DNA of 64,000 bases from Octopus sinensis (Eukaryota): assembly GCF_006345805.1 (NCBI RefSeq), contig NC_043018.1, positions 26,908,001 to 26,972,000 of the forward strand. Direction: 5' to 3'. A program made the translations under genes and the position numbers. The notes beneath the pieces were generated by a model. The model worked only from the letters and a program-made list of their open reading frames with translations. It had not been told where the DNA came from and made no database searches. This document shows, piece by piece, positions 803 to 50,742 of the stretch (positions within the stretch are counted from its first letter, which is position 1; each line of letters opens with the position of its first letter).

Positions 803-1610
803 CTCCCCACAGACATCAAGCCCACCCATTCCCTTCCTTCACAAAATAGAAAGAAGAGAAACAGACACAAAATACAAAAAAATTCCCTCCACAGTGAAAC
901 AGGATATGTATGCGTTTTAACGGAAGATGCACAGGAGGAACTGATCAATGAGGTGACTGGATGGAGAACGGCAAAATATGTGGATATGAAAGGACAGGCA
1001 ATTGTAGTGGGTTGGGACATGTGTATGTTGGTGTCGCAAGTTCAAAGGGATGTAATTGTTAAATATATATTTCTTTACTGCCCACAAGGGGCTAAACACA
1101 GAGGGGATAAACAAGGACAGACACACAGACTAAGTAGATTCCATCGACCCAGTGCGTAACTGGTACTTAATTTATCGACCCCGAAAGGATGAAAGGCAAA
1201 GTCGACCTCGGCAGAATTTGAACATAGAACGTAACTCAGACGAAATACGGCTACGCATTTCGCCCGGCGTGCTAACGTTTCTGCCAGCTCGCCGCCTTTG
1301 TAATTGTTAAATATAAAAGGGGATATAAGTGTTGGAAGACGGACATAGATATAAAAAGGATACCATGAAGAATAGGGTACGAGGAGCTACTAGAAAAATT
1401 TAATCTAGACGTTCTAAAACTATCAGGACTTAAAATGAAGTGACGTTGCTAGACGTGGGACTAGCAGCTCATTTTCATTTAATCATTTTCATGAATCATA
1501 CTTATCATAACTGAATTGTTTTTTTATTCAATTTTTTTTTTTGTTATTTGTCCTCACATGTGTTTGTGTTGTCCCATGTGTGTTGGCCCCTTGTGGGCAA
1601 TAAAAAAATC
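803..1610 (+). mobile_element. Insertion in the mariner relic ending in a Tx1-type 3' end
   Basis: Ends gttgtcccatgtgtgttggccccttgtgggcaataaaaaaat, matching the 3' ends of the Tx1 elements at 45335-45374 and 50487-50529; identity of the 5' part uncertain. Confidence 0.5.
1068..1298 (-). mobile_element. tRNA-derived SINE (family 1, Nin/Deu-like central domain, Tx1-like tail)
   Basis: Full copy; central gcctttcatcctttcggggtcgataaa..aagtaccag; 17-bp TSD tgtaattgttaaatata (1051-1067 / 1299-1315). Confidence 0.9.
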
Positions 1611-2899
1611 CACTTATTCTTAGTGCCGTTCAATTTTAACAGTTAGTTTTTCAAAGCCATAATGTAAGTGACAAAGGAGCATATTCGGCATATTTTGCTT
1701 TATGAGTTCAATAAAGGCAACAACGAAACGGAAAGTGTGAAGAATATTAATGCAGTATAACCTACTGACTTCTTTCTGCTTTCGTCTCTTAAATGTTCTA
1801 AACGATTCAGCTGACAAAATGACCCTTGGCCCTTTGACCCTACAGTATTATAGGATTGTTGTTTATCTTTTTACTTGTTTCTGTTATTAGGGGGCAGCCA
1901 TGGTGGGGCACCGTTGTGAAGATTGGACAATAAGCGTAAGACAGTGTCTACGGTGGTTCCAGGAATTCCGAGCCGGAAACTACAGCCTAAAAGACGAGCC
2001 TCATCCTGAAAGATCTGTAGAGCTCGACGAGGACGTCCGGAAAACCCTGGTGGAACAAAATCCCATCGTAACTGATGAGGAACTAGCAGAGAAGCTTGGA
2101 TTTGGTAATTCAACCATTCGACGTCTACATGCCATCGGAAAACTAAGCAAATTGGGTCAATGGGTTCCTCACAAACTTTCCGATACTAATCACGAGCAGA
2201 GAGTGAACGTGTGCTCTTCTTTGCTGCCACGTCTCACCAATGAACCTTTTTGGGACCGGTGTAGTCTTTCCATTTTTAAAAAGTATGTTGCATGCGATTC
2301 GATAGAAGTTTGGCTGCTATTTCTAGCAAGTTTTGTGACTACATAAAGGTTCCAAGACTCACCCGTTTGTTATGTAAGTTCTTTTCATTCATTTAAATAA
2401 AAAATCAACAAAGAACTTGAAGGAAATTTCACTGAATTCCCATGAAAGTTGCTTCTATTATTCCCAAGCGAATGTCACCTACATGTTGAAGCCTGAATTG
2501 ACAACTTTGTCAATTCTGTCTGCACCTCAGCGATTCCTACCCTGAATTTTGTGTGTTTTAGAGAGAGAGGGTTGTAAAAAAATTTGTGAAAATGAAATGC
2601 CAAGCAGCCGACAAAACTCACTCACACAAACCCGTGCGCAAACGTACTTAACTCCACATCCAGTAAACACCTTCATGCACGTTCACACACAAATCTCCAT
2701 AGACATATTCACATATTCTATGAGTACATACGTTCACACACGAACAGTCAGATATACATTTTCACACACATACACACCACGCAAGCGTACGTTGACATGG
2801 GTGATACAATTCAGTCCGTTCAGAGATTTAACGTTTTACCGAATATGCACGGACACTCAGGAAGACTTAGCGAAAATTTGGGGCGATGGAGATTGTAGA

Positions 2900-3610
2900 G
2901 AGGGTGAAAGGATAAGAGTGGAGAATGAGAGAGGGGGAGAAATAAAGAGAGATATGGAGAGAGAGAGAGAAAGAGAGGGGGGAGGAAGGGGGGAGAGGGA
3001 GGGCGGGCGGAGGGAAGAGAGAGAGAGAGGGAGGTCGGAGGGAAGAGAGAGAGAGGGAGGTCGGAGGGAAAGGAGAGAGAGAGAGGGAGGGGAGAGAGAG
3101 AGAGAGGAAGGGAGGAGGAAAGAGAGAGAGGTAAGGCGGAGGGAAGAGAGAGAGGAAGGGCGGAGGGAAGAGAGAGAGAGGAAAGGCGGAGGGGAGAGAG
3201 AGAGGAAGGGCGGAGGGAAGAGAGAGAGGAAGGGCGGAGGGAAGAGAGAGAGGAAGGGCGGAGGGAAGAGAGAGAGGAAGGGCGGAGGGGAGAGAGAGAG
3301 GAAGGGCGGAGGGGAGAGAGAGAGAGGAAGGGAGGAGGGGAGAGAGAGAGAGGAAGGGCGGAGGGGAGAGAGAGAGGAAGGGAGGAGGGGAGAGAGAGAG
3401 AGGAAGGGCGGAGGGGAGAGAGAGAGAGGAAGGGCAGAGGGGAGAGAGAGAGAGGAAGGGCGGAGGGAAGAGAGAAAGAGGAAGGGAGGATAAAAACAGA
3501 GAGGGAAGTGAGAAAGAGGGTAGAAACAGTGAAAGGGAAGGGATTAGAGAAGGGAACAGTGAGAGGGGAAACAGAGTGGAGAGAGAAACAGAGGTAAGGG
3601 AGAGAGAAAA
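2900..3610. repeat. GA-rich purine tract with ~24-bp gagaggaagggcggagggaagaga-like units
   Basis: Visible periodicity; source of spurious ORFs 2549-3493 and 2867-3700. Confidence 0.9.
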
Positions 3611-3879
3611 ATCGATAACAGAGAAAGGGTGGATTAGGCGCAGAGTCACCGAATGACTTAAGTTCTCTTCGTAATCACAAGGTCTGACGTTCGATCCCAT
3701 GGTGTAGCGTTCTTAAATAAGTGTAATTTTCTATAACCTAAGAACCCAGATTCCTCGAGCGAAATTAGACAGACAGAAACTGTATAGAAGCCCGTCGGAT
3801 GGATAGTAACAGTAATTCAAAATATCAGCTTTGTCACACCGCGGCCCTGATTCTGTCTGAGAATTACAGTAAGGGTACA

Positions 3880-4292
3880 GGATCTTTTCGGTTTGAACGG
3901 CAGTTATTTTCTAGCGGTGTCATATGAAACTGTCACCCATAATTATGACCCTAGTATCGATCTATTGCATTTCAATCTGTTTTAGGGTTAGGGGGAAGGG
4001 TATCTTTTTTTTCTTCACAAATGTAAATAAACCCAATCTGTTTCTTAAACGAGGGACATATTCATATGGCACAGAATGGTTTTTTTTTTACCTCAATAGA
4101 CGTCAGTGATTGGTTGAAATTGCAGAAATTGAAGAAAAAACAACAACAAATATCTTACAAACTATAGAATTTTCTCAATAAAACCAAGAGAAAAAGATGT
4201 TTTATAAACACATTCTACCAGTATACGAAGTTTAAAATTTTTTAGTTACATAGAAATTATGTTAAAAACTGCCGTTCAAACCGAAAAGATCC
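3880..4292. mobile_element. MITE with GGATC termini and 8-bp TSD
   Basis: TIR ggatcttttcggtttgaacggcagtt / aactgccgttcaaaccgaaaagatcc; TSD agggtaca both sides. Confidence 0.92.
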
Positions 4293-4582
4293 AGGGTACA
4301 AGTGTCTGTGGAGTACTCAGCCACTTACATGCTAATTCATTGAGTTCAGCTGATTGACCCGAGTCATCGCAGGAAATTTTGGCGAAGATTCAATACACGG
4401 ATACACACACAGACCCTTCCACCAAACCTCCGATACCCCATTCATACAACCCCCCATACTCTACATACACCTCCTCCCTGATTCACAAATACACCGATTC
4501 ACCTTATCTATGGACATTTACAATAAGGTGAACCCTAAGCAAGCAGTACAACTTTTTAGCCGTCTCTGCAATGTCAAATACC

Positions 4583-4815
4583 TATTTATTTATTACCCAC
4601 AAGGGGTTAAACATAGAGTGGACAAACAAGGACAGACATAGGTATTAAGTCGATTACATCGACCTCAGTGCGTAACTGGTACTTATTTAATCGACCCTGA
4701 AAGGATGAAAGGCAAAGTTGACCTCGGCGGAATTTGAACTCAGAACGCAACGGCAGACGAAATACGGCTACGCATTTCGCCCGGCGTGCTAACGTTTCTG
4801 CCAGCTCGCCGCCTT
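4583..4815 (-). mobile_element. SINE family 1
   Basis: Full copy; 13-bp TSD aatgtcaaatacc (4570-4582 / 4816-4828). Confidence 0.9.
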
Positions 4816-4828
4816 AATGTCAAATACC

Positions 4829-5170
4829 CTTTGTCCCTGGGTCAGGGGTAGGTGCCTCATCCAAGACGCCACAGTCTGAGACTCTTTTGCTCCTTCGCAC
4901 ATTCTGGATGCTGCGGTAACTGGGAGGGTCACTGCTTTCGTAGCCGAACGGAACAAAATCCCTAAGGATCAGGACTTGTCAGTGAACCCATTTCTTCCAG
5001 CCTGTCGCGTTCGAGACGTTTCGATGAACTGGGCCACTAATGGCGAAGTTCCTGTCTCGCCTCACAGAGATGTCAGGCGATGCCTGTGAGGGTGCTTGGC
5101 TGTCCTAATGCCTTAGCCTCGCCATCGCCCGCAGTAATGCCGCGAGCGTGTTGGCTCACTCCTGTAGGTT
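4829..5170 (+). pseudogene. C-terminal restriction-like endonuclease (REL) fragment of a CRE-like non-LTR retrotransposon
   Basis: Frameshifted translation PWVRGRCLIQDATV*DSFAPSHI...AERNKIPKDQDL..HFFQPVAFETF..GP...SRLTEMSGD...LSLAIARSNAASVL, as in REL-domain C-termini. Confidence 0.65.
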
Positions 5171-6520
5171 CCGTTGAACCTTGTGGTGCGAGACCATTGA
5201 AGCATGCTTGCATGGGCCCCTGCATAGGAGGTGCAGAGTATGCAAGCACACTTAAAATTTTTAGTGGTTGTAAAATCAAAATTTGCACACCTACATACGT
5301 TTCTTGGGTTTAGAATACAGGGCGTAAAAAGAAACTCGAAGTTAGGTTTCTTCTCAAAGAACTTTTTAAAAAAACAAAAAAAAAAAAACAAACAAAAGGA
5401 CCTTGTTTATAAAAAATTTTGAACCTGGGTTTGCACCACTTAAACAAATTTCGTCCCTGAGCTATAGCAAGATTGTGCTTTCTTTGATTTTGGATTTGTA
5501 TTTGAATGTGATTTTATATTATATGTATCGGCGTAACTTCGGTATAGGTACCGGAAGTACCGGATACATTTCAAGAAAGTGTTTTTTTTATATATATATG
5601 GGGGGTTAGGGTTTGTGTTAGGGGCGGGAGAAAAGGGTTTCTGTTATCTTCAGAAATGTAAACAAAGCCACTTCCGGTACTTACAGTACCTATACCGAAG
5701 GATCGCCTATGTATCTTATATCAGGTTCGTTTATACTATTTTTTTTTCTTTTGCTATCTCTCCATGACAGAAAAAGTGAGGCTGATCTGGTGGGTATTGA
5801 TCCGGTCCATTATCCAAAAATACGCCACGTAGGAATCAATGAAATTAGATTTATACAGAGGTTATTATGTGGGAAAAAAAGACAAAGACAGAAAAAAAGA
5901 CAAAGACAGAAAAAAGGAAAAAAATGCTGAGTGAATAAACGAAAGAGCGCGTGAAATGGATAACGCAAGGTCGACAGGATGTGACTTCTTTATAAACAAA
6001 GCTTACAAAGTAGGCCACAAGGAAATTCATTTTCAACACCATCTGTGAAGCGTAATAACAATAGGAAGGCAAATTGTCCTTAATCATTGTTAAATCTATT
6101 CTCTTAACAATTTTGTCTCAATTATTCGTAATCATACTGTTTTTATTGAAAAAAAATAAATAAATAAAATGGCGACAAAGTTTAACTGTCTCCAATGTAG
6201 ACGGACAGTACTTTTTGGCTATTTTGTTACGTTTATTTAACGAGCCGTCACAGAATTAAACTTTCCCGGGCAATTGTATCAACGACCTGGTTTCGATTTC
6301 CGGTTGTCGCTACATTTTGAATTCACTTCATTGCCGCTTCTAATGACCGAGGGAACACCACAGCTATACCAAATAAATTACAAATAAACTGGCTGATTCA
6401 TATCTTTTTGTCAAAATTTCTACTACCAAGATATCTGTTTATCTAGCTCTCAGTTCTTTATCAATAGAGGGTTGGCCAAAAGTCACCTGACAGTAAATCA
6501 AAAATAGCATCAATATTTAA

Positions 6521-7140
6521 TACTCTTTTACTCTTTTACTTGTTTCAGTCATTTGACTGTAGTCATGCTGGAGCACAGCCTTTAGTCGAGCAAATAGACT
6601 CCAGGACTTATTCTTTGTAAGTCTAGTACTTATTCTATCAGTCTCTTTTGCCGAACCGCTAAGTTACAGGGATGTGAACACACCAGCATCGGTTGTCAAA
6701 CGATGTTGGGGGGACAAACACAGACACACAAACATACACACACACACACACACACATATATATACGACGGGTTTCTTTCATTTTCCGTCTACCAAATCCA
6801 CTCACAAGGCTTTGGTCGGCCCGAGGCTATAGTAGAAGACACTTGCCCAAGGTGCCATGCAGTGGGATTGAACCCGGAACTATGTGGTTGGTAAGCAAGC
6901 TACTTACCTATTTCTTTATTGCCCACAAGGGGCTAAACATAGTGGGGACAAACAAGGACAGACAAACGGGTTAAGTCGATTATATCGATCCCAGTGCGTA
7001 ACTGGTACATATTTAATCGACCCCGAAAGGATGAAAGGCAAAGTCGACCTCGGCGGAATTTGAACTCCCAACGTAACGGCAGACGAAATACTGCCAGCTG
7101 CCGCCTTGGTAAGCAAGCTACTTACCACACAGCTACTCCT
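6521..7140 (-). mobile_element. SINE family 2 (tRNA head, CORE-like block, CA repeat) with nested family-1 SINE at 6909-7105
   Basis: gcaccttgggcaagtgtcttc CORE-like block, gtaaaagagtaaaagag tail; nested copy flanked by (tt)ggtaagcaagctacttacc duplication. Confidence 0.88.
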
Positions 7141-7502
7141 ACAACTATATGTCACTTTTTCAAATTTGCGCTACAGATTTTCTGTAGACAGTAGAGCCAC
7201 AATGAGAGTTGCGACGTCTCGAAACGAAACAAATATAAACAATGCAATAAAATAATAGAAAAATTGGTAATTGGTGTATCTGGATATTTCAGGAATTCTT
7301 GCGTCTTCTTCAGTTCCAGATCCAACTCATTAATCACCCTCGAACACCTTGACGTATCCGTATACGAAACGTCGTGACTCTCAGTGCTGACTCTACTTTC
7401 CATGATTGAATAGCATTGCTAACACAAGTAGGACAGATACATAAGCTTTTAATATACTTGGTGAAACGAAATACAGCGTCCCGACAGCAATTTATATATA
7501 CA

Positions 7503-7718
7503 CACTTTCTCGACTTACGACCATTCGTACATACGACCACAAGAAACAGGACATATATATTTTTCACATTCTGTGCAATAATTATGTATTAAATTTTTGT
7601 GTTTGATATTTCTATAACCCGTTTGAATGAAAATGGTGTTGATATAAATCCGACATACGACCAAATCGACTTACGACTTGTCAGTCGGAACTGAAATTGG
7701 TCGTAAGTTGAGAAGGTG
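7503..7718. mobile_element. Tigger/pogo-like MITE
   Basis: TIRs cactttctcgacttacgacca / tggtcgtaagttgagaaggtg; internal cgacttacgac repeats; TA-rich flanks. Confidence 0.7.
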
Positions 7719-7997
7719 TATAACAGGAAATTTTTAGGTATTATTCATTCACTATTACATGTGTTTCATTTGCTAATAGGAATTACAAAGATTTACATGT
7801 TATATACACATGTAAAGAATTTCCTATCAGAAATTCGTCAGATACAGAAACTTTTTATAATAACTCTGCAAATAATATTTCCATAATTCTCAATTTTAAT
7901 GTGTGTCTTAATTTACATAGAACTGTAACTATGAATACATTTATTTGTAATGGAATAAGCAGATGTGCTTCAAGAGAGAACAGCTGGTTAAGGTTTT

Positions 7998-8200
7998 AAG
8001 GCGGCGAGCTGGCAGAAACGTTAGCACGCCAGGAGAAAAGCGTAGCCGTATTTCGTCTGCCGTTACGTTCTGAGTTCAAATTCCGCCGAGGTCGACTTTA
8101 CCTTTCATCCTTTCGGGATGCATCGCCCAGCCCAGGAATCGAAACCACAATCTTACGATCATGAGTCCAACACCTTAACCACTAAGCCACGCGCCTCTAC
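7998..8200. mobile_element. 5' half of SINE family 1 (+) fused to a SINE family 3 head (-)
   Basis: aggcggcgagctggcag...cctttcatcctttcggg followed by gaatcgaaacc...ccactaagccacgcgcct. Confidence 0.75.
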
Positions 8201-8446
8201 TATACATACATACATACATACATAACGCACACATCGGGGCTTTCTTCCAAGGAATCTAATGCGCTTGGCTTAGATTTTCCTTTGGGGCTGGCCAGATCGG
8301 AGCAATCTCAAGATTAATCAGCCGAAATTGCGAAGATGATCCGGTTCTTGACTGAAGATTGAAGGCTTCGAATGTCTCGTCCGTGTTTTTTGTATCGTCT
8401 TCTAAAAATGTTTTACGTTCTTGTCCCAGTTTGTGTTTTTTACATT

Positions 8447-8484
<38 letters not shown>

Positions 8485-8768
8485 ACACTGACTTCTTTCA
8501 GCGCCCGTCTACCAAATCCACTGACAAGGCTTTGGTTGGCCCGAGGCTGTTTTTTGATCTTTTACGCGAAGGCTCTTGTCTTCACAATAGTTATTCTTGC
8601 TGTTCTTACAATGTCAAAACAAATGTCGTATAACTTCTGTAAAAACTCGTTTTGGCAGATTTTGACATTTTAGTGGAAAAACATAAAATAGAAATGGGCA
8701 GTAAAATTTGAATGGCCTTGAGTGACATGTAAATTTTACAGATGAATATGTGAAGAGAAGCTATTAAT

Positions 8769-18053: not shown

Positions 18054-18277
18054 GATTTCTTTACTACCCACAAGGGGATAAACACAGAGAGGACAAACAA
18101 GGACAGACAAACGGATTAAGTCGATTATATCGACCCCAGTGCGTAACTGGTACTTATTTAATCGACCCCGAAAGGATGAAAGGCAAAGTCGACCTCGGCG
18201 GAATTTGAACTCAGAACGTAGCGACAGACGAAATACGGCTACGCATTTCGCCCGGCGTGCTAACGATACTGCCAGCT
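18054..18277 (-). mobile_element. SINE family 1
   Basis: Near-full copy matching 1068-1298. Confidence 0.88.
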
Positions 18278-21972: not shown

Positions 21973-22248
21973 AATAAACACTAAGCTTACAAATAATAAA
22001 TCCTGGGGTCAATTTATTCGAGTAAAGGTGGTGCTCCAGCATGGTCGCAATCAAATGACAAACAAGTAAAAGAATGAAATAATATAGTTCTACAGATTCT
22101 AGCTTTCCTGGTGAGCATTATTAATTCAGTAATAACTTGCCGAGGTCGTCTTTGCCCGTCATACTTTCGGGGTCGATAAATTAAGGACCAGTTGCGAATT
22201 GGGGTCGATCTAATCGACCGCTCCCCCTCGCCAAAATTTCGGGCTTTG

Positions 22249-23405: not shown

Positions 23406-23563
23406 TATTTCTTTACTACTCACAAGGGGCTAAACATAGAGGGGACAAACAAGGACAGTCAATGGGATTAAGTCGGTTATATCGACTCCAGTGCGAAACT
23501 GGTACATTTCGACCCCGAAAGGATGAAAGGCAAAGTCGACCTCGGCGGAATTTGAACTCAGAA
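23406..23563 (-). mobile_element. SINE family 1, 5'-truncated
   Basis: Tail and central domain present. Confidence 0.82.
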
Positions 23564-23836
23564 TGTCTCCCTTAGCGAAGGCAGAGATATTGTTTCAGTC
23601 GTGTTTGCTTGTTTGTCCGTGGACAAGATATCTCAAGAACCGCTGGATGGATTCGGATGAAACCTTCAGGGATGTTTGGTTTTATTATTACTGGCATTAT
23701 TCTCTCTCACAATCTCGGGTATTCATCCTCGGAATCACTAAGTTGTTTTTCGACCAATTTCTCCACCCACCGCCTCGCTCATGCACCTCTTCTCTTCTTC
23801 TTTTGGCTTCTCAACACAAGCCATAATTATGGCTTT

Positions 23837-24466: not shown

Positions 24467-24889
24467 AACTTTAACTCCTCGACACAACAACGCAATCCAA
24501 CCAAATCACAAAAATCACTCCAACACAGTTGAACTTTCAGGGGATGCTTGATTTTATTATTGCCCTTGCAGGCGCACAAAGAGGGGGGGGAAACACAATA
24601 TGAACGGGGCCGTACACAATCAATTTTACCTTTCATCGTTTCAGGAGGTGATAAAATAAGTATCAGTTGAAAACTGGGGTGACTGTTATCGGCTTAACCA
24701 CTCCTTTAAAATTGCTGGCCTTGTGCCAAAATTTGAACCCATGATTTAATTTTAAAACGGAAAGTGATATTTAAAAAAAAATTCTGTTTCTATTTTACAC
24801 AAAAACATTTTAAATTACAAATTTCGCCACGCAAAAATAATTAAACCATATCTATTAAAACGACGAAAAAGAAAAAAAAAAGGGGAAAA

Positions 24890-26685: not shown

Positions 26686-26988
26686 CTATTTCTTTACTAC
26701 CCACAAGGGGCTAAACACAGAGAGGACAAACAAGGACAGACAAACGGATAAAGTCGATTATATCTGTTTTTTTATTACCCACAAGGGGCTACACACAGAG
26801 GGGACAAACAAGGACAGACAAACGATTTAAGTCGATTACATCGACCCCAGTGCGTAACTGGTACTTAATTTATCGACCCCGGAAGGATGAAAGGCAAAGT
26901 CGACCTCGGTGGAATTTGAACTCAGAACGTAACGGCAGACGAAATACGGCTACGCATTTCGCCCGGCGTGCTAACGTTTCTGCCAGCT
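26686..26988 (-). mobile_element. SINE family 1 with duplicated 3' tail
   Basis: Two successive cccacaaggggct..acacagag..gacaaacaaggacagacaaacg tails. Confidence 0.85.
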
Positions 26989-33536: not shown

Positions 33537-34238
33537 ATATATATATATATATATATATACTCTTTTATTCTTTTATTTGTTACAGTCATTTGACTTTGGC
33601 CATGCTGAGCACTGCCTTTAGTCGAGCAAATCGACTCTAGGGATTATTCTTTGTAAGCCTAGTACTTATTCTATCGGTCTGTTTTGCCACACACACACAC
33701 ATACATATACACACACACACTACATATATACACATACGCACACACACTCACACACGTATACACACATACATCTTGTTGATTCTTGGGAGCGTCATTATGC
33801 CAATAACGATATGGTTACACATCTGACAACTTCGTAATCGATCGTTTGTTTGGTTAAACAATCAAGTTTATTTCTTTCGTAAAGTCCGTGAAGTCCGTTC
33901 GCTATTTTTCGCGACCTTTTCAATAGCTGGTCCTTTCTCTTCAACGTCTGCCCTGAAATTTGGCCGCGAATTAATCTTATGTCTGCGTGCATGCATGCCT
34001 TTCTATGTGTGTGTAGATGTGTGTTTGCTTAGAAGAATAAGGGTGAGAGGAAAGGAGATTATGTGCGTGCGTGCGAGTGTGTATGTGTGGTGTGTGCGTG
34101 CGTATGTGTGTGGGTTGTGTACACTCGTGTGACTACTTGCATGTGTATGTGTACGTGTGTGTTAGTGTGTGTAGCCATCCATGACTAGGTATGTGTATGT
34201 ATAACTGTGTCTAATACGCACATAGATTTATATGCAAG

Positions 34239-34465
34239 AGGCGGCGAGCTGGCAGAAGCGTTAGCACGCCGGGCGAAATGCTTAGCAGTATTTCGTCTAC
34301 GTTCTGAGTTCAAATTCCGCCGAGGTTGACTTTGCCTTTCATCCTCTCGGGGTCGATAAATAAAGTACCAGTTTCGCACTGGGTCGATGTAATCGACTTA
34401 ATCCGTTTGTCTGTCCTTGTTTGTTCCCTCTATGTTTAGCCCCTTGTGGGTAGCAAAAGAAATAT
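34239..34465 (+). mobile_element. SINE family 1, full length
   Basis: ggcggcgagctggcag head to gccccttgtgggtagcaaaagaaata tail. Confidence 0.88.
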
Positions 34466-36745: not shown

Positions 36746-39447
36746 TTGTTGTTGGCATCATTTTTGTCTCGGGAGACAATGGAGTTGCGCATAAAATAAT
36801 CTTGTCCGGCTTTTACATTTCATGTCCTAATACATCTCTTGCTGTGGCTGTGTAGTCCTAGCCGGGACAAACACTCCCTCTGGCAGGTGCCGTAAATGTA
36901 GCGAAGACTTTGCCTGACTGGTTGTAATGTCATAGTTTCTTGTTGACGTCTTTTCTTGTCTTCCATTTCTCCTTTCTCACTATGTCACTCCTTTGTGTTC
37001 CCTCTTTCACGGTACGCGTCGCCAATCTCCACGGTTGCTGGCAACTGCTTCCCAGTTGTAATATTGATGTTGCAGGCATTCATGTCCCTTTTGCAAACAT
37101 CCTTGTATCGTAAGAACGGTCTTCCCACAGACCTAGTGTGCCCTAGCAAGCTCTCCGTTGAGTATGTCCTTGGGGATTCTGCCATCTTCCATACGGCTAA
37201 CATGTCCAAGCCATCTCATACGTCTTTGTGTGAAGAGTGCAAACATGCTTGGTATTCCTGCTTGCTTGAGGACATCTTTGTTAGGGACATGATTCTGCCA
37301 TTTGATGCGATGGATTTTCCGGAGACAGCGCAGGTGAAAGATATTTAGGCGACGTATGGCGTCGTATGGCGTGTGTATGGCGTCAAAGTCATACAGTAGA
37401 GTGCTAGTACACATGCCTGGTAATCTTCATTTTTGTGGTCTTGGTCAGCTTATTGTTGTCCCATGCGCGTTTGGTGAGTGGGCCATCACAGCAGCTGCCT
37501 TGCCAATGCGTATATTGAGCTCAGCATCAAGGGATAGGTTGTAGGTGACGGTAGAGCCAAGATAGGTAAACTTCTCCACCTCCTATACTCTGTGGTATCC
37601 AATATGTATGTTTGGGATGTCCGATGTAGCCTGACCCATGATGTTGGTCTTCTTGAGGCTGATAACTAAGCCAAAGTTGCCAAATGCTTGCTCAAAACAG
37701 TTGCTGTGCCTTCGTAGGGCTTCTGTGTGTGATACCAGAGCGGCATCATCAGCAAATAGCATCTCCTTGATCAGGATGCTTCTGAAATTTTGGTCTTGGC
37801 ACGCAGACGCGAGAGATTGAACAGTTCCCCATCACTTCTACTGTGCAGAAACACTCCATCATCTGATGTCTCAAAGGCATGTGACAGCAGCAGCGAGAAG
37901 AAGATGCCAAATAATGTAGGAGCAAGGACACAACCTTGCTCTACCCATTTTTATTTGGAAGGCGGCTGATGTTGAACCATTGTGCTGTATGGTGCCTTGC
38001 ATATTAGCATGGAATGATTTGATGATCCTCAGCAGCTTTGGTGGACATCCGATTTTTTGGAGCAGGATGAAGAGGCCTTTTCTACTTACCAGTCAAAGCC
38101 CTTTGTCAGATCAATGAAGGCCATATATAATGGCATGTTCTGCTCTCTGGACTTCTGAAGTTGGCGTATGGAGAATATCATGTCAATTGTTGATCTGCTT
38201 CTAAAGCCACACTGCGATTCTGGATAAATTCGAGAAGCAATTAGTTGTCAGCCTGGACAGGATAATGCAAGCAGAGGCCTTTCCAACTGTGCTTAGAAGA
38301 GATATTCCACGGTAATTGTTACAATCATCACGGTCACTTTTATTTTTGTAAAGCGTAATGATGTTAGCATCCCGCATATTCTGAGGGACTGTACCCTCTT
38401 ACCTGCACTGACACAGAAGCTCATGAATGTGCCGAAGCAGGATGGTGTTTTTGCCGGTTTTGATGATCTCTAAGGGGATGCCGTCTTTTCCCGGAGCCTT
38501 GTTACTACTTGCTAGGAGTCAATAGATTTGGTGAGCTCTGCTATAGATGGCAGACTGTCAAGTTCACACATGACTGGCAAGATCTTGACACCCTCGATTG
38601 CAGCCTCAGCTACCGTGGTCTCTCGTGAGTAGAGATCCTGGTAGTACTCCATCCATCTATCCATTGCTTGCTTTGGTCCCTGATGAGATCTCCAGTAGTT
38701 GATTTCAGAGGGGCTGAGGTATTTGCGGATGGACCGAGGGCCTTCAAAACCGGCATACATCCCACGGGTGTCGCCACTGTCAGCAGCTGACTGGATACTC
38801 TGACAGATTTCCTTTCAATACCCATTTGCATAGCGTCTGGCAGTCAGTTGGGTTTTATTTCTTGCCTTTCTGAGTTCTTCGTGTGACTTTGTAGAAGAAC
38901 CACTCTTGTATTGCATCAGAGCTGTACGCTTTGCTTCGATAACTGGTTCCAGCTCTGAGAGCCCAGCACTGAACAAAATCTGGGTTTTACCTTTCTCTCA
39001 TCTCATTCCGAAGTATCTATTGATGTGGTATACAAAGCTTCCCTGATATAATTCCACCTACTTTCAGCAGAGGAGGTTGGGCAGCTACTGAGGGCAACCT
39101 TGATAAAAAAAACCAAAACATTGTCGCAGTGTAGGGTTCGAGGTTCTGGCAGTGTTAATGCGTGGTTGGCTAATTTTCTTGGAGTGATGGACTTTTTAGG
39201 CAGAATCCTCCCCTTCTTATTAGTGAATGATCTGTCTCACAATCCGCGCTACGGGTCAGTTGAACAGAATTCAGAAGGATCTTCGTGTAATGATGAGATC
39301 CAACTGATGCCAGTGGTGAGATCTTGGATGTCTCCAAGATGCCTTGTGGGATGTCTTGTTGGGAAAGAATGTGTTGGTGATGCACAGGTTATGGTATGTG
39401 CAAAATTCAAGTAGTCTCTGGCTATTGTCATTCATGTTGCCAATACT
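36746..39447 (-). pseudogene. RTE-clade LINE, 5'-truncated and frameshifted (APE end plus reverse transcriptase)
   Basis: ITNTFFPNKTSHKASWRHPRSHHWHQLDLI, NYRGISLL, LFADD, RLNIFHLRCLRKI, RRMRWLGHVSRMEDGRIPK; short (CAA) tail. Confidence 0.9.
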
Positions 39448-40010: not shown

Positions 40011-40428
40011 ATAAGAATACTTATGCATAAATCTAAAATCTTAAATAATTTCTTTGTTATTGTAGTATATATCAGTAAAAAATGGAATATTCCCAAAATT
40101 GCATGATTAACTAAATGATTTCCATTTCTTATTTAAACGTGAAAATCTTGAAAAAAAAAATCAGATATATGGATGTGATATAATGACACTTATTCATTTT
40201 TGAACACCGGTCTGAAATCAATTTTTTGCGTGTATAGTAAGTTATTATATTGTGTATATTTTCTCCATTGTGATCTACTGTTGTCTAGCTGTCTGTCTGT
40301 GTTGTTGTAAAACTGTTGAAGTCGGCCTTCGTGCGAGGGCTTCGTGTTGGTGTTTTCCCCCTCCGTGGGGGAAAGAGCTATCATTATCTTGGGTGTGCCA
40401 AGGGCTTGTTAAAAGCCAGTTATCAGAG

Positions 40429-41743
40429 ATGGAATCCCCTATCTCGAATTCAAGTGATGCAGGATCACCGGCGGTGTCGCCAAAGAAAAAAGGGGCGGGG
40501 TCGCCAAAGGAAAAAGACATTCTAGCACCAGCGAGAAAATTTTCTGAAGTAGCTGGGAAGAAAATTAAAAAAATCAACGTGGACAACCTGGGAAAACATG
40601 CGGACTGTGTGTCGAAAGAGGGCACGGAAGTAACCGTAGCTTCAAACGCCCAAATACAGGAGGAAATTTCGAATAGGAGAATAATCTATAAGACATTCAG
40701 TATAACAAGCAGAGCAATACAAAAAATAGAGGAGAAAAAGATCGAAAACTGCTTAAAGCCGATTATGGATAAAATAACATATATCAATCGAGGGAAGAAA
40801 TTCGGCACAGTGGAGGTGAGATTCACGTCAGAGGAGGTAGCAAAGAAGCTATCAATGGAACCCATAAAAGCAGAGGATATTGTTCTCCTACCCCTGTATA
40901 AAGGCAAGAGAACTTCCAAGATCACAATGAATAACATTCCGCCAGAAGCGGATGCCGAAGTCCTGGTGGCAGCAGTTATGGTAGGCCTGGAGGAAAAAAT
41001 AAACATCCTCCAGGCCACCGTAGAAGAAGAAGAATTCTGGAAAGGGCAAAAAATAATAATAGCCATACAAGCAGAAGTACAAACCCTGGAAGAGATCCCA
41101 GAGACTCTAAAGATAAGCGAAGATGAAAGAGTCACAGTCTTCGTAGAAGGCAGAAAGCCGAGGTGCTTCGGCTGCGGTAAGAAAGGGCATGTAAGGGCAG
41201 AATGCCAGCCCCAACCCAAACCGCAGGAAGCAGCTCAGCCAAGTGGAAAAGAAGAAGCCGTGTCGTCAGAAACAGCGCTGGTCGGCCCAGGAGGGACGAC
41301 CGAAGGTGTGGAGGTGACAAAGGCAGCGGAACCAACGGAGGAAGAAAAAAAGAGCGAGGAAACGAAAAAGGAGGAGGGGTGGTCAAAAATCACCAGGAAA
41401 AAAAGAAAAACTGAAACCACCCCTCCCAAAGTAAACCAAAAAAAAAAAGGGAGTCATTGAACTCATTTATGGCCGTTAAGGCCACGAACAATAGACTTGG
41501 AAATGTGTTGGCAGCGATGGCCAAAGTAGAAAAATAGGGAAGAAAAACGATTATGTTTTGTACAGAATAGGCCGAAAGGATACGGACGGATAAAGTCCGA
41601 ATTTTTCCATGACGTAGGCCCGCTCAGAATGGATATAACATCTCCATATATATTCGAGGGCCTGCGTCAGACTCCCCCACGAGGCCCAGAAAAAGAGAAG
41701 GAAGAAGAAGAAAAAAACCGAACCACTGATATAAAGGTAAGTA
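40429..41743 (+). CDS. Tx1-A ORF1 (zinc-knuckle nucleic-acid-binding protein); frameshifted after ~41450
   Basis: CFGCGKKGHVRAEC knuckle; likely ATG at 40429; frame break in an A-run. Confidence 0.8.
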
Positions 41744-44700
41744 ATGGATTTTTATGTTGGTTGTTTAAATGTGCGCGGCCTGGGAGCAGGCTGGAAGCAA
41801 GGTCGCTTCCTGCATGATATCAGGTCGCGTAATTTAGATGTCATTGTTGCTACAGAAACCCGGTTAGAGGGGCCAAGAGGTCTACTCCCGCTGTTTGACG
41901 GCTACGAGAGTTTTTTCTCTCCTGGCAGTCCTACAGGCGGGAGTGGGGTGTTGGTCCTACTAAAAAGAAACCGGGTTTCTGGGAAAAAGTTAATTTTTGC
42001 AGATCCAGAAGGTAGGCTGGTCGTCATGGATTTGACGTTCAGTAACGGTAAAGTTATCAGACTGGTTGCAATTTACGCACCCAACAGTACAGGGCAAAGT
42101 GATTATTTTCGTGAACTAGAAAACTTTCTTGGTACTTCGCATTCATTAGTGGTGCTAGGAGACTTTAACACAATTTGCAAAGCGGATGTAGATTGTGTTG
42201 GCTCGCGTCCAGATAGGAAAGGTAACAGTGGCTTCATGGAACTGCTAAGCCGCTTTGAGCTAGCAGATCCTTACAGGCTGGAATTTCCGAACGCTCCATT
42301 GTGGACATGGTCAAACAGCGACGGATCTTCCAGGTCATATTTAGATAGAATACTAATTAGAAAAGTAGACAGTAAAATAGCTAAGTGTCCACAGTTTTAC
42401 CCGATCAGCTACAGTGATCATAAAATGGTCACTTGTAAGCTTGACATAGATAAGGTTAAAAATAGAGGATCCGGTTACTGGAAACTTAATACGTCCCTTT
42501 TGGCGATTAAGGAGTACAAAGACCGGATTAGGAATATAATTCAGAGGGCACTATCTGGTACCATCATTAATACAAATGGTGGTACGCCCTCAAACGAGCC
42601 ATCAAGTTTGAGTCTATTAGATATAGCATAGGAGTAGTGGCTAGAGAGGCTAGAGGGAAACTACTCTAGTTAAGGAATTAGAGGAAGCCATGAAAACTGG
42701 CTCTGCGGCTCAGGTGGCGGCCAAGAGACTGGTGTTAAACCAGCACCTCGAGGCCAAACACATGGGCTGCATTGTCAGGGCTAGAATCCGTCATATGGGA
42801 TGTGAAGGAATCAACGCCGTGAGATGGGCCCGAGTGGTGGAAGCTCAGCATGGTAACGATGCCACGATTCGATCTTTGACGAACCAACAAGGTGAGTTGA
42901 TAAACGAACCCGAGGAGATGTGTGAGGCCTTTCAGGAGCACTTCGCTCAGCTTTTCGGTGAGTGCGGCGGGCTGGATAGGAGGAGGGCCTTTACGGACCT
43001 ACTCGACGGTCTACCGCGCTTATCGGGGCGAGATGCGGAGGGCTGTGAAGGGCCAATCACGCCTGGGGAGGTGGTTGAGGCAATGGCGGACTGCGGCGCG
43101 GGCAAGGCGCCGGTTTGGATGGTCTACCCTATGAGTTATATAAGAGTATGCCAGACTTGTTCGGGCACCTACTGGCGGAGGTCTACGCGAACTGGCAGCA
43201 GAACGGGCTTATACCCAGATCTGTGCGCCGGGGAGTAGTGACTCTCGTCAGAAAGGACCCGAGCAAGGGGGAGTGCATTGATAATTTCAGGCCCATCACT
43301 CTGCTAAACACAGAGCTGAAGATTTTGGCCAAAGTGTTATCGAAAAGATTGGCGCGTGTCGCGGATGGTCTGATCGGAGGGGCACAGACATGTGCCGTTC
43401 CGGGCAGATCCATTCAGGATAATCTCCATCTAATGCGGTACACTATAGAGGGGTTTTAATAGTGATTCTGGCAAGGGTGGGGCTCTGGTCCATTTAGACC
43501 AATCTAAAGCTTTTGATAGGGTCGACCATCGTTACCTGGTATCTGCCCTGGCACAGTTCGGGCTGAGCCTTGGCTTCCTCAGGTGGATTATCCAAATTTA
43601 CGATAACATCGACTCGGTAGTTCGGGTGAACGGCTTCTTGTCGAAGCCGTTCAAAATCAAACGCTCGGTTCGTCAAGGGTGTCCGCTCTCCCCGCTTTTG
43701 TACGTAATGGCTCTTGAGCCATTACTGCGAAAACTGAGCGGCATCCCGAGACAGCCAGGTAACGGAAAATCAGTGTCAGCGTACGCGGATGACATCACCA
43801 TCATCGTAACCGAAATGGACCACCTATGTAAAGTAGGCAAGGCCATAGAGGTTTACGAGACGGTGACAGGAGCAAAAGTAATCGCGAAAAGTCAGTCGGC
43901 TTGCAACTCGGCACCTGGAGAGGCAAGTCGATGCCTCCTGACAGCGTCGTGGGACGTTGGACGGAGGGTCCGATTAAACTGCTAGGGGTCTGGTTCGGTC
44001 CAGACCTCCAAATAGAGAAGAATTGGGGCGAGGTAACGAGCAAGGTGGCTGCAGTAGCCAAGACCTGGTCTTGCGGTGGCTATCCCTGAAGGGAGGGCGG
44101 AGGTGGCCAATGTGTTCATCGCATCGGTTATCACCTACCGCCTTTCCGTCGTTCCTTGCCCTGATTCGTGGTTGATCAAGTTGGAAAGACAGCTCTTCTA
44201 CTTCTTGTGGAAGGGCGGGAAACCACTTGTGAAACGCTCTACTTGCTGTCAACAACCGTTAAAGGGTGGGCTAGGGATGCCTTGGCTGATGATGCGCAGA
44301 CATGCGCTGAGGTTAAGACATCTGTGGCTCTACCTGGATGGTGAACGGGTGTGGTCTTCGCTAGCAAAACTGATGTTTCCCAAGTTCACTAGTTTTCGGT
44401 GGCTGGGAAACCTGGCTGAATCGTAGATCGAAACTGGGTACTTGGTACACGGAGTGTCGCAAGGCTCTCCTGCTGTTCCGTCGCTCGGGCAACGCCTGCG
44501 GTGGGGGTTCCACCACACTCTCTATAGAGGGTTGGTAGAGGCGGAATGTGAAGATACCTTGGGGGAAACCCTGGGTCTCGACGATAATCAGCTGGCCAGT
44601 CTGTTCCGACGTACGTTCGAGCCGAGGACACTGGACAACTTCCAGAAGTCTTTGGCATGGCAATGCTACAGAGGAGCTCTACCTGTTCGGGATAAACTCG

Positions 44701-45131
44701 CAAGGCACGGTGGCCAAGACAGTCCGATATGTCCAAGATGCGGGCGGGATAGGGAAACCGTCCCGCACGCTATTGTTCATTGTCCGGACGTGTCTGAGGT
44801 GTGGGTTTATGCCGAACAGCTGTTGTCAGGTACACGAAGAGTACAGCTGTCGACTGAGTCGATTACAAAAATTGACCCACCGGATTTCCTCGTGAATGAA
44901 GGTAAGTTTCGTTTTCTCGTTGTAGTAGCAATTGCGAAAGAAGTGATATGGAAGACGAGAATGAAAGGTTTACAGTCAGGCAAGTTCATCTCCGGCCCTG
45001 GTTTGATGAATTACTTCATCTTTCACCTGAAAAGGAAGATAGGGCTGGAGAGAATATGCCTGACTAGGAGAGTGTATGAAGAACGATGGAAGGATGTAGC
45101 ACGAAAGTTGCGAATGAAAGTCACAACATAA
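41744..45131 (+). CDS. Tx1-A ORF2: APE endonuclease, reverse transcriptase, C-terminal Cys/His motif; several frameshifts
   Basis: LNVRGL, TET, GDFN, SYLDRI, SDH, GYWKLN; FRPITLLN, QGCPLSP, AYADD; CPRC...HAIVHC. Confidence 0.9.
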
Positions 45132-45543
45132 ATGTAATACCAAGTGCAACCAAAAGTATCAGTGGGGAGGCGGGGCTCGTGGGGTCCGAGCTGAACCCGC
45201 ACCCACTCCATCTGTAATGTCTTCCGGTCTATTACATCATCCGATTTTGTGTGTATTTTTGTAATTTCATGATATTTTTAAAACCGTTTTTGTGTAAAAA
45301 CCATCCGTATGTCTGACCCCAAATAAGATTGTTTTGTCCCCTCTATGTTCGCCCCTTGTGGGTAATAATAAAATCACTTATTCATTTTTGACGAGAATGT
45401 TTTATCCCGCCTGGTCGGCACCTATATAAAGTCACTGTTGCTACTAAAAAGAAAAAAAAAAAAAATGTAAGTTGGTTTTTTTTTCGTTAGTCAAATTTAT
45501 TTGACCAATTTCAGTGAAGACGCTGAGGAGGGGTAGGCCAATA

Positions 45544-46885
45544 ATGGCCAGCCCGAAGGCGGACAGAGCGGAGGTCCAAACCCAGGTCCTTAGTCCAGAG
45601 ATGTCCAACCTGGAAGGAATAATGGCTATACCCGACATTTTCTCGGACGAGGAGGAAAGTGGGAGAGTCAGAAAGAGTATAGATGTGCCAAGCATGGCAA
45701 GGAAGGTGCTAAACTTCGCCGAGGCAGCTAGTCCGAAGGAAAGAAGGATTAACCTAACCAGGGTGGAAGAAGCGAAGAAGATAGTGTCTCGAGACGGGTA
45801 CAAGATTAAACTAAACCAGATGAAAGAATCTCTCGAAGAGATAGAGAAGAGAACGGTAATATTCAAAACATACTGTAACATAGAAAGGAAAATAGACTTT
45901 TCGTCGGAAAAGAAGTGGAGGCGTGCCTACTACCCATCTGGGATAAAATCACATTTTTTAACCAGGGGTAAGAGGTACGGAACTGTGGAAACTAGGTTCA
46001 AGACAGAAGAAGAAGCGAGGGAACATTCAATGAAGCCCCTAAAAACAGGCAATAACAACCCTTCTACCTATCTATAGAGGAAGGCGTATTTCAAAAATTA
46101 CGGTTGCCAACATACCGCCGGAGATCGAGCCCGAACTGATAGTGGCTGGGGTCACTGCAGGACTGGAAGACCAAATGGAAGTGCGTGATGCCACGGTGGT
46201 AGAAGCCAAAAAGTGGCATGGACAGAAAGTACAAATTATTGTACAGGCAGAGCAGGTCGCCTTGGAAGAGATAGGCGAGGTCATCGAAATAGGAGAGAGC
46301 CGGATGGCAGTAATGGTGGAAGGCCGGAAGCCCAGGTTTTCACCTGTGGCAAGAAGGGCCACATCAAAAAGGACTGTAAGCCGGCGGAGAGGAAAAGAGC
46401 GTACCCACAAAACCAAGTGCTCAAGTGGCGGCTACAGAAACGACAGCCGCAACAGAAGTAGGGGAGGGGTGTCACAGGTTGCTGCGACAAAACGAAAGCA
46501 CAACACCCCCTCCCCGGAGAAAATTATAAGCAAAGAGAAGAGAGAAGAAGAAGAAAAAGCGAGAGAAGAAGCGAGAGGGGAGAACAGGGTGTATGTGGCG
46601 ATGAATACCGCAAACAGAGAAGTGGTACGCAGAGTGGAGACTCAACACGTCGAGGAGGTGGAGATGGAAGCGAAAGGTGGAGGCTGGAGATGCTACGTGA
46701 TGGGACTGAAGGGGTTCAACACGTATGCAAACGACTTTAGAAAAGACGTAGGCACACCCAGAATGAGCAAGGAGGATGCCCTGAAGGATGCAGAAAGAAA
46801 GAACAACAACGCGCCGAGTCCACGTTCATCTGAGGCAGAAGAGACGGGTCCCCCCCGCCGGTCGGACCCAGAGGAAATAAGGTAG
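45544..46885 (+). CDS. Tx1-B ORF1, frameshifted
   Basis: RTVIFKTY, RGKRYGTVE, VEGRKPR, TCGKKGHIKKDC align with A ORF1. Confidence 0.75.
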
Positions 46886-46892
46886 GCAAACT

Positions 46893-49800
46893 ATGGCTGT
46901 TTACGTTGGTTGCATAAATGTGCGCGTCCTGGTAGCGAACTGGAAACAAGGTCGTTTTCTAAACGATATCAGGGCGCGGAACTTAAATGTAATTGTCGCT
47001 ACTGAGACACGAATCGAAGGGCCAAGAGATCTACTCCCGCTCATGGAAGGCTACGAGAAATTTATTTCTCCTGGACGGCATGTGGGCGGGAGTGGGGTGT
47101 TGGTTCTGCTTAAAAAATAGTGTCGCAGAGAAAAAGTTGATTTTTTCTGATTCAGAAGGTAGGCTGGTCGTCTTAGATCTAACGTTCAGTTGTGGTAAAG
47201 AAATCAGGCTGGTGGCGGTGTATGCACCTAATACGGGTCAGACTGATTTTTATCGAGGCTTGGAGAAGTTTCTTGGCACGTCAAAATCCATAGTCATGTT
47301 AGGGGACTTTAATGCCATAGTCGACGCGCGCGTCGATGGCATTGGCTCGAAAGATAGGAAACCAAACGCTGGCTTCCGGATCTACTGAGTCACTTTCAGC
47401 TGGTAGATCCCTACAGACTTGAATTCCCGAACGCTCCACAGTGGACGTGGTTAAGTGGCGACGGGTCTATCGGGTCTTACATAGACAGAATTTTTATTAG
47501 AAAAATAGATAAAGGATTAGTTAAGTGTCCACAGTTTCACACGGTCAGTTACAGCGATCACAGGATGGTCACTGGCGAACTGAACCTAGATAAGTTAGGT
47601 AGTAGGGGATCCGGCTACTGGAAACTCAATAAGTCCCTCCTGGCTATTGAGGAGTACAGAAAGCGGATCGAGTTAGTAGTGAAGAGGGCGTTAACCGGTT
47701 CCATTATTAACAACAAATGGTGGTACGCCCTCAAAAGAGCCATAAAATACGAGTCCGTTAGATACAGCATAGGTCTAAACTAGCGGGCGTAAGAAAGAGA
47801 TGGGGCTAGTTAAGGCCTTAGAGGAAGCCATGAGAGCTGGCGATGGGGCCCAGGTTAGGCTGAAGAGACTGGAGTTGAACCAGCACCTCGAAGCCCAACA
47901 TATGGGTTGTATCGTCAGAGCTAGAATTCGCGCAATGGGGTGCGAGGGTATCAAGGCTGCCGGATGGGCACGAGTTGTGGAGGCTCAACGTGGAAACGAT
48001 TCCACAATTAAGTCTGTGACGAATGGGCGAGGTGATGTGATCACCGAACCAGAGGAGATGTGTCGGACGTTTCAGGAGCACTTCGCTCGGCTCTTTGGGG
48101 CGACGGCGGACCGGAGGAGAGGGTGGACCTAACGGACATCCTCGCCGGGCTGCCGCGCCTCTCGGGGCAGGATGCGGAGAGCTGTGAAGCGTCGATCTCG
48201 CCTGAGGAGATAGCTGAGGTCCTGGCCGACTGCGGTGAAGGCAAGGCGCCGGGGATCGATGGTTTACCTTACGAAATATATAAAAGAATGCCAGACTTGT
48301 TCGGGAACGTGCTGGCCGGCGTTTTCACGAACTGGCGGCAGAATGGGTTCATTCCCAGATCTGTACGTCGGGGAGTGGTGACGCTGATCAGAAAGGACCC
48401 GAGCAAGGGAGATAACATAGACAATTTTCGGCCCATCACACTGCTAAACACAGAGGTGAAGATTTTGGCCAAGGTGTTAGCGAAAAGGTTGACGCGTGTC
48501 GCGGGTGGTCTGATCGGGAAGGCACAAACTTGTGCGGTCCCAGGAAGAACCATCCAGGACAATCTTCACCTAGTACGCTACACAATAGAGAGGTTTGGGA
48601 ATGACTCTGGCAAGGGTGGGGCATTGGTCCATTTAGACCAGAGTAAAGCGTTTGATAGGGTGAACCATCGGTACCTGGTGTCCGTGCTGGCGCAGTTCGG
48701 TCTGGGCATTGGCTTCCTCAGGTGGATCATACAATTGTACGATAACATCGACTCGATCGTTCGGGTGAATGGCTTCCTCTCGAGGCCGTTCCGCATCAAA
48801 CAGTCTGTTCGTCAAGGGTGTCCGCTCTCCCCGATTTTGTATGTGATGGCTCTTGAGCCATTGCTGCGAAAGCTGAGCGCCATCCCGATGAATCCAGGAG
48901 GTGGAGGATCTGTGACATCGTATGCGGACGACATCACCATCATCGTGACCGAGGTGGAACTCCTACGTAATGTGGGAGATGCCATCAAGGCTTACGAGAC
49001 GGTGACAGGAGCAAAGATTAACCGGAAAAATCGGTCGGCTTGCAACTCGGCACCTGGAGGGGCAAGTCGATGCCTTCGAATAGCATCGTGGGATGCTGGA
49101 CGGAGGGCCCGGTTAAGCTGCTAGGGATCTGGTTTGGTCCAGGTCTCCAGATAGAAAAGAACTGGTCTGAGGTGTCGGGCAAGGTGGCTCACGCGGTCGG
49201 GACTTGGTCCGGACGGTGGCTGTCCTTGAAAGGGAGGGCGGAGGTGGCCATGTGTTTTTAGCATCGGTCATCACCTACCGCCTGACCGTCGTTCCTTGTC
49301 CGGATTCGTGGTTGAGCAAGTTGGAGAGACAGATCTTCCACTTTTTGTGGAAGGGAAGTGCTCCTCTTGTAAGACGTTCTATCTGCTGTCAGAAACCGTT
49401 AAAGGGTGGCTTGGGGATGCCTTGGCTGATGATGCGCAGAGATGCGCTGAGGTTAAGGCACCTTTGGCTCTACCTGGATGGTGAACGGGTGTGGTCCCCG
49501 CTTGCGAAGCAGATGTTCCCCAGCTTTGCCAGTTTCGGTGGCAGAGAAACCTGGTTTCGTCGCAGACTTAGATCGAGCATGTGGTATTCGGAGTGCCATA
49601 AGGCACTCTGCCACTTCCGCAAGTCGGGCAATGCCGGCGGCTTTGGTACCACCGCAGCTTTTTATAGCAGGTTGGTAGAGGCCGGAAATGACGATGCCTT
49701 AGGAAGGACCTTGGGCCTCGATAGAAATCAGTTGGACAGCCTGTTCCGAAGGACGTTCGGGCCGAAGACATTGGATAACTTCCAGAAGTCTTTGACCTGG

Positions 49801-50271
49801 CAATGTTTCAGAGGAGCTTTACCCGTTCGGGATAAACTCACAAGGCATGGTTGGAGTGGACCATCGAACTGCCCAAGATGCGAGCGGGATCTGGAAACAG
49901 TCTCGCACGCTATTGTTCAGTGTCCGAAAGTCTCGGACGTGTGGGTATATGCCGAACACCTGTTGTCGGACGGAAGAAGAGTACAGCTATCGGCTGAGAC
50001 AATTATAAAAATTGACTCGCCTAGCTTTTTGACAAGTGAAGGTAAGCATTGCTTTCTCAGTACAGTAGCAGTAGCGAAAGAGTGTATATGGAAGACCAGA
50101 ATGAAAGCGGTAACGACAGGCACCGTGATCTCTGGCTCCGCCTTGGTGACCTATTTCAGGTTCCACCTAAAAAGAAAGGTGGAGTTGGAGAAGAGGTGTC
50201 TGTCTGCGTGTGAGTTCGATAAAATATGGAAGCGTGTGGCACGGTTGCTGCGAGTGAGAGGAGCCACGTAA
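46893..50271 (+). CDS. Tx1-B ORF2: APE, RT, Cys motif; frameshifted
   Basis: INVR, GDFN, GYWKLN, PGIDGLPYE, FRPITLLN, DQSKAFDRV, QGCPLSP, SYADD, CPRC...HAIVQC. Confidence 0.9.
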
Positions 50272-50742
50272 ACATGCTGTAGGTTGGCTGCCGAGTTTCG
50301 GTGGGAATAGCAGGGCTCGTGGGGTCGGCAATCCTGGTGTTCCCGCTTCATGTGTTACCTTTATGTTGTGTTGTTGTTGTATATCATTTGATTTATCCGA
50401 TTTTTCGTAATTTAAAAAAAAAAAAAAAAAATGTTCATTTTTTCTGTAAATACCATCTGTGTCTCATGACCCCAAATCATGATGTATTGTCCCATTCTTC
50501 GTTGGCCCCTTGTGGGTAATAAAGAAATCATAGACACTCAACAACTGAATACTTATCATAAAAGTGCCTTACTGCTTTCTGCTGGATTTTACCTCGAGAA
50601 AGGAACCCTGAGGAAGGAGGGCTGAATTTCGAATACCTCGTACAACAAACGGCTGCAGGTTAGGAAAAAAAATTTAATCGCCTCTTTCAATTCAGGTTTT
50701 CATTTTTCATGTTTTTATTTGTATTTCATTGTTATGTTTATA

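Follow-up and report, generated by a model that had tools for sequence, protein, structure and literature searches.

A 64,000-nucleotide stretch of the Octopus sinensis genome (NC_043018.1, positions 26,908,001 to 26,972,000; hereafter the window) carries several copies of a short interspersed nuclear element (SINE), the last ∼45 nt of which are common to this SINE and to six families of Tx1-type long interspersed nuclear elements (LINEs). LINEs and SINEs are both non-long-terminal-repeat retrotransposons. We propose that the tail was taken from the Tx1 LINE group and that the SINE is copied by the protein of the second Tx1 open reading frame (ORF2p), a reading deduced from sequence comparison and to which we assign a probability of about 0.78. 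The shared tail, the double changes in its stem and the matching target duplications make both a Tx1 origin of the tail and a Tx1 partner likely. Moreover, the head of the same SINE is the target of a site-specific Tx1 family, Tx1-C.

When one SINE copy was compared with the window by BLAST, it matched the final 43 nt of the LINE Tx1-A (E = 2e-5) and the final 27 nt of Tx1-B (E = 3e-4), in agreement with the common tail claimed in a preliminary description of the window. The 3' terminus of Tx1-B, AATAAAGAAAT, is identical to the SINE end. All seven SINE tails reported in that description are in place, the 3' ends quoted there for Tx1-A and Tx1-B read as claimed, and SINE and Tx1 ends indeed carry no poly(A). 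One more element with the tail, the tenth, ends at 1609 and had not been listed. The elements of the window are the following:

809..1609 (start approximate), plus strand: 3' part of a likely ORF1-only, non-autonomous Tx1 derivative, with the tail stem-loop at 1586-1598
1068..1299, minus strand: full-length SINE with a 17-bp target duplication, sitting within the ORF1-only derivative
4583..4815, minus strand: full-length SINE with a 13-bp duplication that begins GGTA
6909..7105, minus strand: SINE with shortened head and a 21-bp duplication that begins GGTA
7998..8117, plus strand: 3'-truncated SINE, tail missing
18054..18277, minus strand: SINE, clear duplication not seen
23406..23566, minus strand: 5'-truncated SINE
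26686..26988, minus strand: SINE whose final ∼75 nt are repeated after it
34238..34464, plus strand: full-length SINE with A-box-like and B-box-like motifs and no T4 run (reference copy in our scripts)
40204..45374, plus strand: full-length Tx1-A with a 17-bp duplication, stem-loop at 45351-45363 and a 3' untranslated region (UTR) of ∼240 nt
40216-41460, plus strand: Tx1-A ORF1, with a CCHC knuckle
41741-45131, plus strand: Tx1-A ORF2, frameshifted, with endonuclease, reverse transcriptase (RT) and zf-RVT domains
45390..50528, plus strand: full-length Tx1-B, ORF1 and ORF2 frameshifted, stem-loop at 50505-50517
22138-22240 and 24650-24740: copies of a sibling SINE, alike in head and body but with another CTTGT-loop tail (also at loci L067, L099 and L145)

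The 17-bp duplication described for Tx1-A was confirmed, at 40187-40203 and 45375-45391, and is comparable to the SINE duplications, whose median is also 17 bp (n = 31, self-insertions counted). Tx1 duplications with a clear match measure 13-22 bp; none was found around Tx1-B when it was looked for. The range of 13-21 bp given earlier for the SINE stands for three of the seven tailed window copies (13, 17 and 21 bp), and the others have no clear duplication.

In local alignments of the last 70 nt with 161 SINE tails, Tx1-A scored 56 and Tx1-B 47, whereas shuffled sequences scored ∼15 ± 3 and CR1-like or RTE-like ends 11-13. All genome-wide counts refer to an assembly of 2.72 Gb that comprises some 30 large contigs. 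A 24-nt version of the tail occurs in it 91,341 times without mismatch, against no occurrence of the reversed control, and 400 kb sampled from arbitrarily chosen round positions held 25 tails, 23 on SINEs and two on other elements. To judge how regularly Tx1 copies carry the tail, we relied on samples drawn with protein queries that ignore it. In the first (150 scored matches, 30 cut out), the tail or a re-paired variant was present in 29 of 30 copies, 24 of them with at most two mismatches and five with a changed stem, and one copy was interrupted. The best 30 Tx1-C copies all carried it (30/30), and in family F a related form, with the CTTGT loop on another stem, was present in 18 of the 20 copies. 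The concern that most Tx1 copies might lack the tail is therefore removed. Among 114 distinct ORF2 ends, a set biased by ∼30 loci drawn with a tail-containing query, the pattern located the terminus in 110; two more were recognized by eye, one was interrupted and one truncated.

Each Tx1 family possesses its own version of the tail, lying ∼220-280 nt past the ORF2 stop, continuous with the UTR and with no SINE body upstream, which argues for transfer from LINE to SINE. An alternative is that chance insertion or recombination gave the window Tx1 copies their SINE tails, or that the match merely reflects low complexity. SINE tails abound in the genome, and an old copy of Tx1-C (L187) seemingly ends in a SINE tail following a deletion. 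However, a family-specific tail at a fixed distance from the ORF2 stop and alignment scores far above those of shuffles leave this explanation so little probability that we count it as already refuted.

We then considered LINEs of other clades. None of 20 chromosomal non-Tx1 RT loci, picked from an RVT_1 family search and assigned to clades by reading their proteins, had a Tx1-type tail at its end. The 14 CR1-like loci terminate in a different hairpin followed by TTA repeats, three copies of one RTE-like family end in GA repeats, and three further RTE-like loci, each a single copy, lack a tail of the Tx1 type downstream. Thus, among the CR1-like and RTE-like types sampled, no clade matches the tail better than Tx1, a possibility that the preliminary description had named as damaging to its proposal. 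These data also bear on the idea that the SINE is mobilized mainly by another clade (CR1, RTE, L2 or R4), its Tx1 likeness being old baggage. RTE, CR1 and Dong-R4 elements are abundant in an octopus annotation (PMC13282606), and our sample covered only two non-Tx1 types. However, the CR1-like (14 copies) and RTE-like (3 copies) ends score no better than shuffles against the SINE tail, the SINE lacks a terminal microsatellite, and it has insertion site and duplication length in common with Tx1; we consider this idea very improbable. The best RVT_1 matches were many near-identical copies on unplaced contigs (such as C12597, C1794 and C2292) rather than on chromosomes; they are possibly DNA of another organism and were left unused. 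A metagenome scan for tails of Tx1 relatives from other animals confirmed 0 of 46 candidates.

The hairpin within the tail provides a second line of evidence. With a hand-set register, and for few events, the third stem pair is C-G in 38 of 48 distinct tails, T-A, G-C or A-T in three lineages, and unpaired in four; three independent double changes thus keep this position paired. The tail of the sibling SINE has the CTTGT loop on three stem variants, each of them paired. A hairpin with this loop terminates three kinds of non-autonomous elements, namely the SINE, the sibling SINE (with another paired stem) and the ORF1-only derivatives. From these observations, we infer that the Tx1 ORF2p recognizes its 3' end stringently. 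One could also suppose that the tail is Tx1-derived but that the hairpin and the AATAAA motif serve 3'-end processing of the LINE, the enzyme being relaxed and the SINE tail kept by descent. This would fit the short stem and the AATAAA present in every Tx1 tail. However, integrated ends have no poly(A), and the commonest SINE subfamily has AGTAAA in place of AATAAA with the hairpin retained, so what the SINE conserves is not a poly(A) signal. The termination of three non-autonomous kinds in the same CTTGT-loop hairpin also speaks against this supposition, which we regard as unlikely.

The LINEs themselves have a Tx1-like organization. Their ORF2 comprises an APE endonuclease (PF03372), an RT (PF00078) and a C-terminal zinc motif (PF13966), and families A, C and F have in ORF1 a zinc knuckle of the form CX2CX4HX4C, to which the Pfam zf-CCHC model responds weakly (E 0.06). 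Such a CCHC knuckle in ORF1 is typical of Tx1 and is not known from mammalian L1. The RT matches a TX1-labelled coral protein with 322 bits, the best informative named match, against 221 bits for human L1 ORF2p, and its nearest named relative is an Argonauta protein. In quick trees, for which curated references of Tx1 and of vertebrate L1 were lacking, families A-E form a single clade (SH-aLRT 100) and the families are placed among these relatives. The RT of family F, which is located in TTA arrays, is 65% identical to that of family C. Insertion flanks recur for families A, B2 and D and are loose for B. Two elements, L132 (L132:2258-3378) and L146 (L146:1093-2591), have ORF1 and the tail without ORF2, and the window element at 809..1609 is 69-74% similar to L132. 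L330 is a further ORF1-only derivative with the tail, and the structure of all four elements is HAL1-like.

Tx1-C, which is absent from the window, is represented by the copy at L066:1888-7238 (G000:C25), with an ORF2 of 1133 aa. Many young copies retain this reading frame open, and most are full length, which is unusual among LINEs. SINE sequence from position ∼49 follows downstream in 30/30 of the best copies, and in a sample obtained with the tail pattern (20 of 143 exact genome-wide matches) all 17 Tx1-C copies lie at the same position, giving 47/47 copies over both samples at a site for which the probability of landing is about 3e-5 per insertion. Some of these targets belong to the sibling SINE, which has the same head. 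The 20 top copies, fetched whole, keep both ends and lie in sense orientation with the SINE head upstream and a 16-bp duplication. Since the C/G variant of the target is concordant on both flanks in 20/20 copies and private changes recur in both copies of the duplication, these are independent insertions. The same private changes, and flanks that differ between near-identical copies, led us to reject movement of Tx1-C as a unit with its flanking SINE. Choice of the target by read-through RNA was unsupported, the C/G target type being independent of the element tree. Compared in pairs, 28 copies diverge by 0.3-0.4%. Of 20 lower-ranked members of the lineage, 16 occupy the same site, two a variant site, and two have lost the end; identity of lineage copies to a young copy ranges from >99% down to ∼85%. 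Read by eye against consensus boxes, the SINE head contains A-box-like and B-box-like motifs, and the Tx1-C site falls between them. Contigs from sequencing runs (X1, X5, X6 and X17, from three organisms) span the Tx1-C body over L066:1700-7700, and X5 bridges the junction with the SINE head; such contigs cannot show transcription.

The SINE also inserts into itself. A head-into-head pattern has 135 exact genome matches, and at least 12 of 30 such loci hold a full SINE with a 13-19-bp duplication that begins at the Tx1-C site; at L067, an old SINE, a young SINE and Tx1-C are nested at one spot. Junctions of the tail with position 49, 26,355 of G type and 268 of C type, yield 184-bp arrays. A position-49 unit follows the tail in 0/38 sibling SINEs and in 7/22 main SINEs from random DNA. 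Outside the SINE, 9 of 18 duplications start with GGTA by hand count, where 0.3% is expected per site. In one SINE subfamily, AGGT or a close variant follows the tail in 29/29 copies, and the diagnostic bases of this subfamily are complementary to that downstream sequence. This suggests masters whose read-through may extend into a tandem unit, with a short stretch of RNA-DNA pairing serving for priming. A second array junction exists at position ∼17 (L103, L109, L182 and L199), mostly with a CAAT variant of the tail. The sibling SINE often terminates in TTA repeats, and family F, with its TTA-array targets, is a candidate partner for it. A different abundant repeat was hit twice, independently, at one GGTA site in its head, by the SINE at 6909 in the window and by that at L101.

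The nature of the SINE head was also searched. ARAGORN found no tRNA gene in it, and Rfam gave no tRNA match at E ≤ 10. The possibility that the element is a MetaSINE was unsupported, because the bivalve MetaSINE rows consulted (PMC4824008) are unlike the SINE body and two of three probe words are absent.

The SINE/Tx1 partnership put forward in the preliminary description is thus supported, and additional support comes from the shared insertion site, the match in duplication length and the covarying stems. However, several observations weigh against it. The exact tail of the SINE occurs in no sampled Tx1 family; the best identity over 45 nt is 0.81-0.85, whereas SINE tails are 0.89 identical to one another, and the young Tx1-C, with a different loop, reaches 0.69. 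The alignment fold gives a stem of just 4 bp with a small covariation term (-0.44), and single-sequence folds frequently lengthen the stem across AATAAA. SINE copies have a mean non-CpG divergence of 3.7% (from the column majority of 215 copies, a sample enriched near Tx1) and are older than the Tx1-C burst, and many solo SINEs occupy TA-rich sites of a kind not used by Tx1-C. Array junctions are 99% of G type, whereas Tx1-C targets are of C and G type in roughly equal measure; most arrays are therefore not fresh insertions in the Tx1-C manner but inherited multimers, local duplications or RNA-guided events. Finally, the control LINEs were CR1-like and RTE-like only. The SINE agrees with families A and B in its loop and last bases and with the C lineage in its TGTTT spacing and target, and farther upstream its tail resembles F and L146. 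The working partner may be several Tx1 families or an extinct one, and families A and B of the window may not be that partner.

If the SINE is indeed copied by a Tx1 ORF2p, RNA polymerase III would transcribe it from the A-box-like and B-box-like motifs and read through its end, the checked copy having no T4 stop. The ORF2p would bind the hairpin of the tail instead of poly(A) and then nick the DNA, and a few read-through bases (GGUA) could pair with the nicked strand. Such pairing would account for the targets starting with GGTA and for insertion into other SINE copies. The 184-bp arrays could arise by homologous 5' joining, copying of multimeric masters and local duplication, and Tx1-C insertions would split the A box from the B box.

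It is tempting to go one step further. The change of the Tx1-C loop from CTTGT through CCTGT to CCGGT might be an escape from the SINE that exploits the tail, while the endonuclease targets the SINE promoter, so that each insertion would gain a safe site and disable a competitor. We hold this scenario to be doubtful; if true, Tx1-C and the SINE would represent a LINE-SINE arms race readable in sequence and open to test, and for the first time a SINE would have revealed stringent, poly(A)-free 3' recognition in an animal lineage of the L1 group. A swap of the modern Tx1-C tail into a SINE subfamily was suggested by the three SINEs among 20 matches to the Tx1-C tail pattern. Of 33 double-changed loops genome-wide, however, 21 read CCAGT, nine CCCGT and three CCGGT, and the swap was therefore rejected.

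Three further features were noted in the window. Directly after the tail of the ORF1-only element lies a broken mariner-like transposase fragment (1610-2346), with a weak match to the Mos1 helix-turn-helix (E 0.04), and a decayed RTE-like RT fragment occupies 37895-38506 on the minus strand. The repeat at 50529-50660 is also found downstream of many Tx1-A-type and Tx1-B copies (L014, L015, L019, L020, L022 and L045) and may represent either another recurrent target or 3' transduction.

The partnership bears on what the ancestor of the L1 group recognized, poly(A) alone or a particular RNA tail. It would be the likely motor of an expansion to at least 91,000 copies, one of the largest among the SINEs of this genome, and would explain the 184-bp arrays. 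Tx1-C itself, a compact, mostly full-length and site-specific LINE, is useful for the study of target choice and of LINE-SINE conflict, and its intact young copies are suited to assay.

A search of the open literature, with Repbase and Dfam outside its scope, found no tail-based Tx1/SINE pair, no partner assignment for an octopus SINE and no LINE targeting a SINE. A Tx1-SINE pair defined by target and tail-based pairs of the L1 clade in plants and algae are already known. The crocodilian SINEU/Tx1-Mar pair was based on shared target, age and 5' heads (Kojima 2015, PMC4494074). As in the octopus, a SINE was given a Tx1 partner, and SINE and LINE have a common target inside another transposon. 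However, SINEU elements have snRNA heads, poly(A) tails and a Mariner target, whereas the octopus SINE has a poly(A)-free shared 3' hairpin and is itself the target (PMC4494074).

In a survey of 58 SINEs, L1-clade tails appear in three only, from plants and a green alga and none from animals (Ohshima 2012, PMC3472496; Ohshima 2013, PMC3747384). Maize ZmSINE2/3 with LINE1-1_ZM and Chlamydomonas SINEX-3_CR with L1-1_CR likewise share a conserved, covarying 3' hairpin of ∼45-50 nt with an L1-group LINE, which was read as stringent recognition (PMC3472496, PMC3747384). The octopus case differs in having no homopolymer end and adds to these L1-clade tails an animal, Tx1-type group with a covarying, poly(A)-free hairpin. 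In the stringent pairs of ZfL2-1 and ZfL2-2, a small 3' stem-loop owes its specificity to the loop and the stem can be swapped (Hayashi 2014, PMC4176376), which fits the constant CTTGT loop on variable stems in the octopus. However, those elements belong to the L2 clade, have terminal repeats and were assayed, whereas the octopus pair is known from its sequence (PMC4176376).

Family-specific multicopy targets are common to known Tx1 families, such as Tx1 in Tx1D, Keno in U2 and Kibi/Koshi in microsatellites (PMC4494074), and to octopus family F in its TTA arrays. No SINE is among the Tx1 targets named in the text and legend consulted of that paper, whereas the target of Tx1-C is a Tx1-tailed SINE. 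What is new here is that a young, intact Tx1 family takes as its target one site of a SINE that bears a Tx1 tail.
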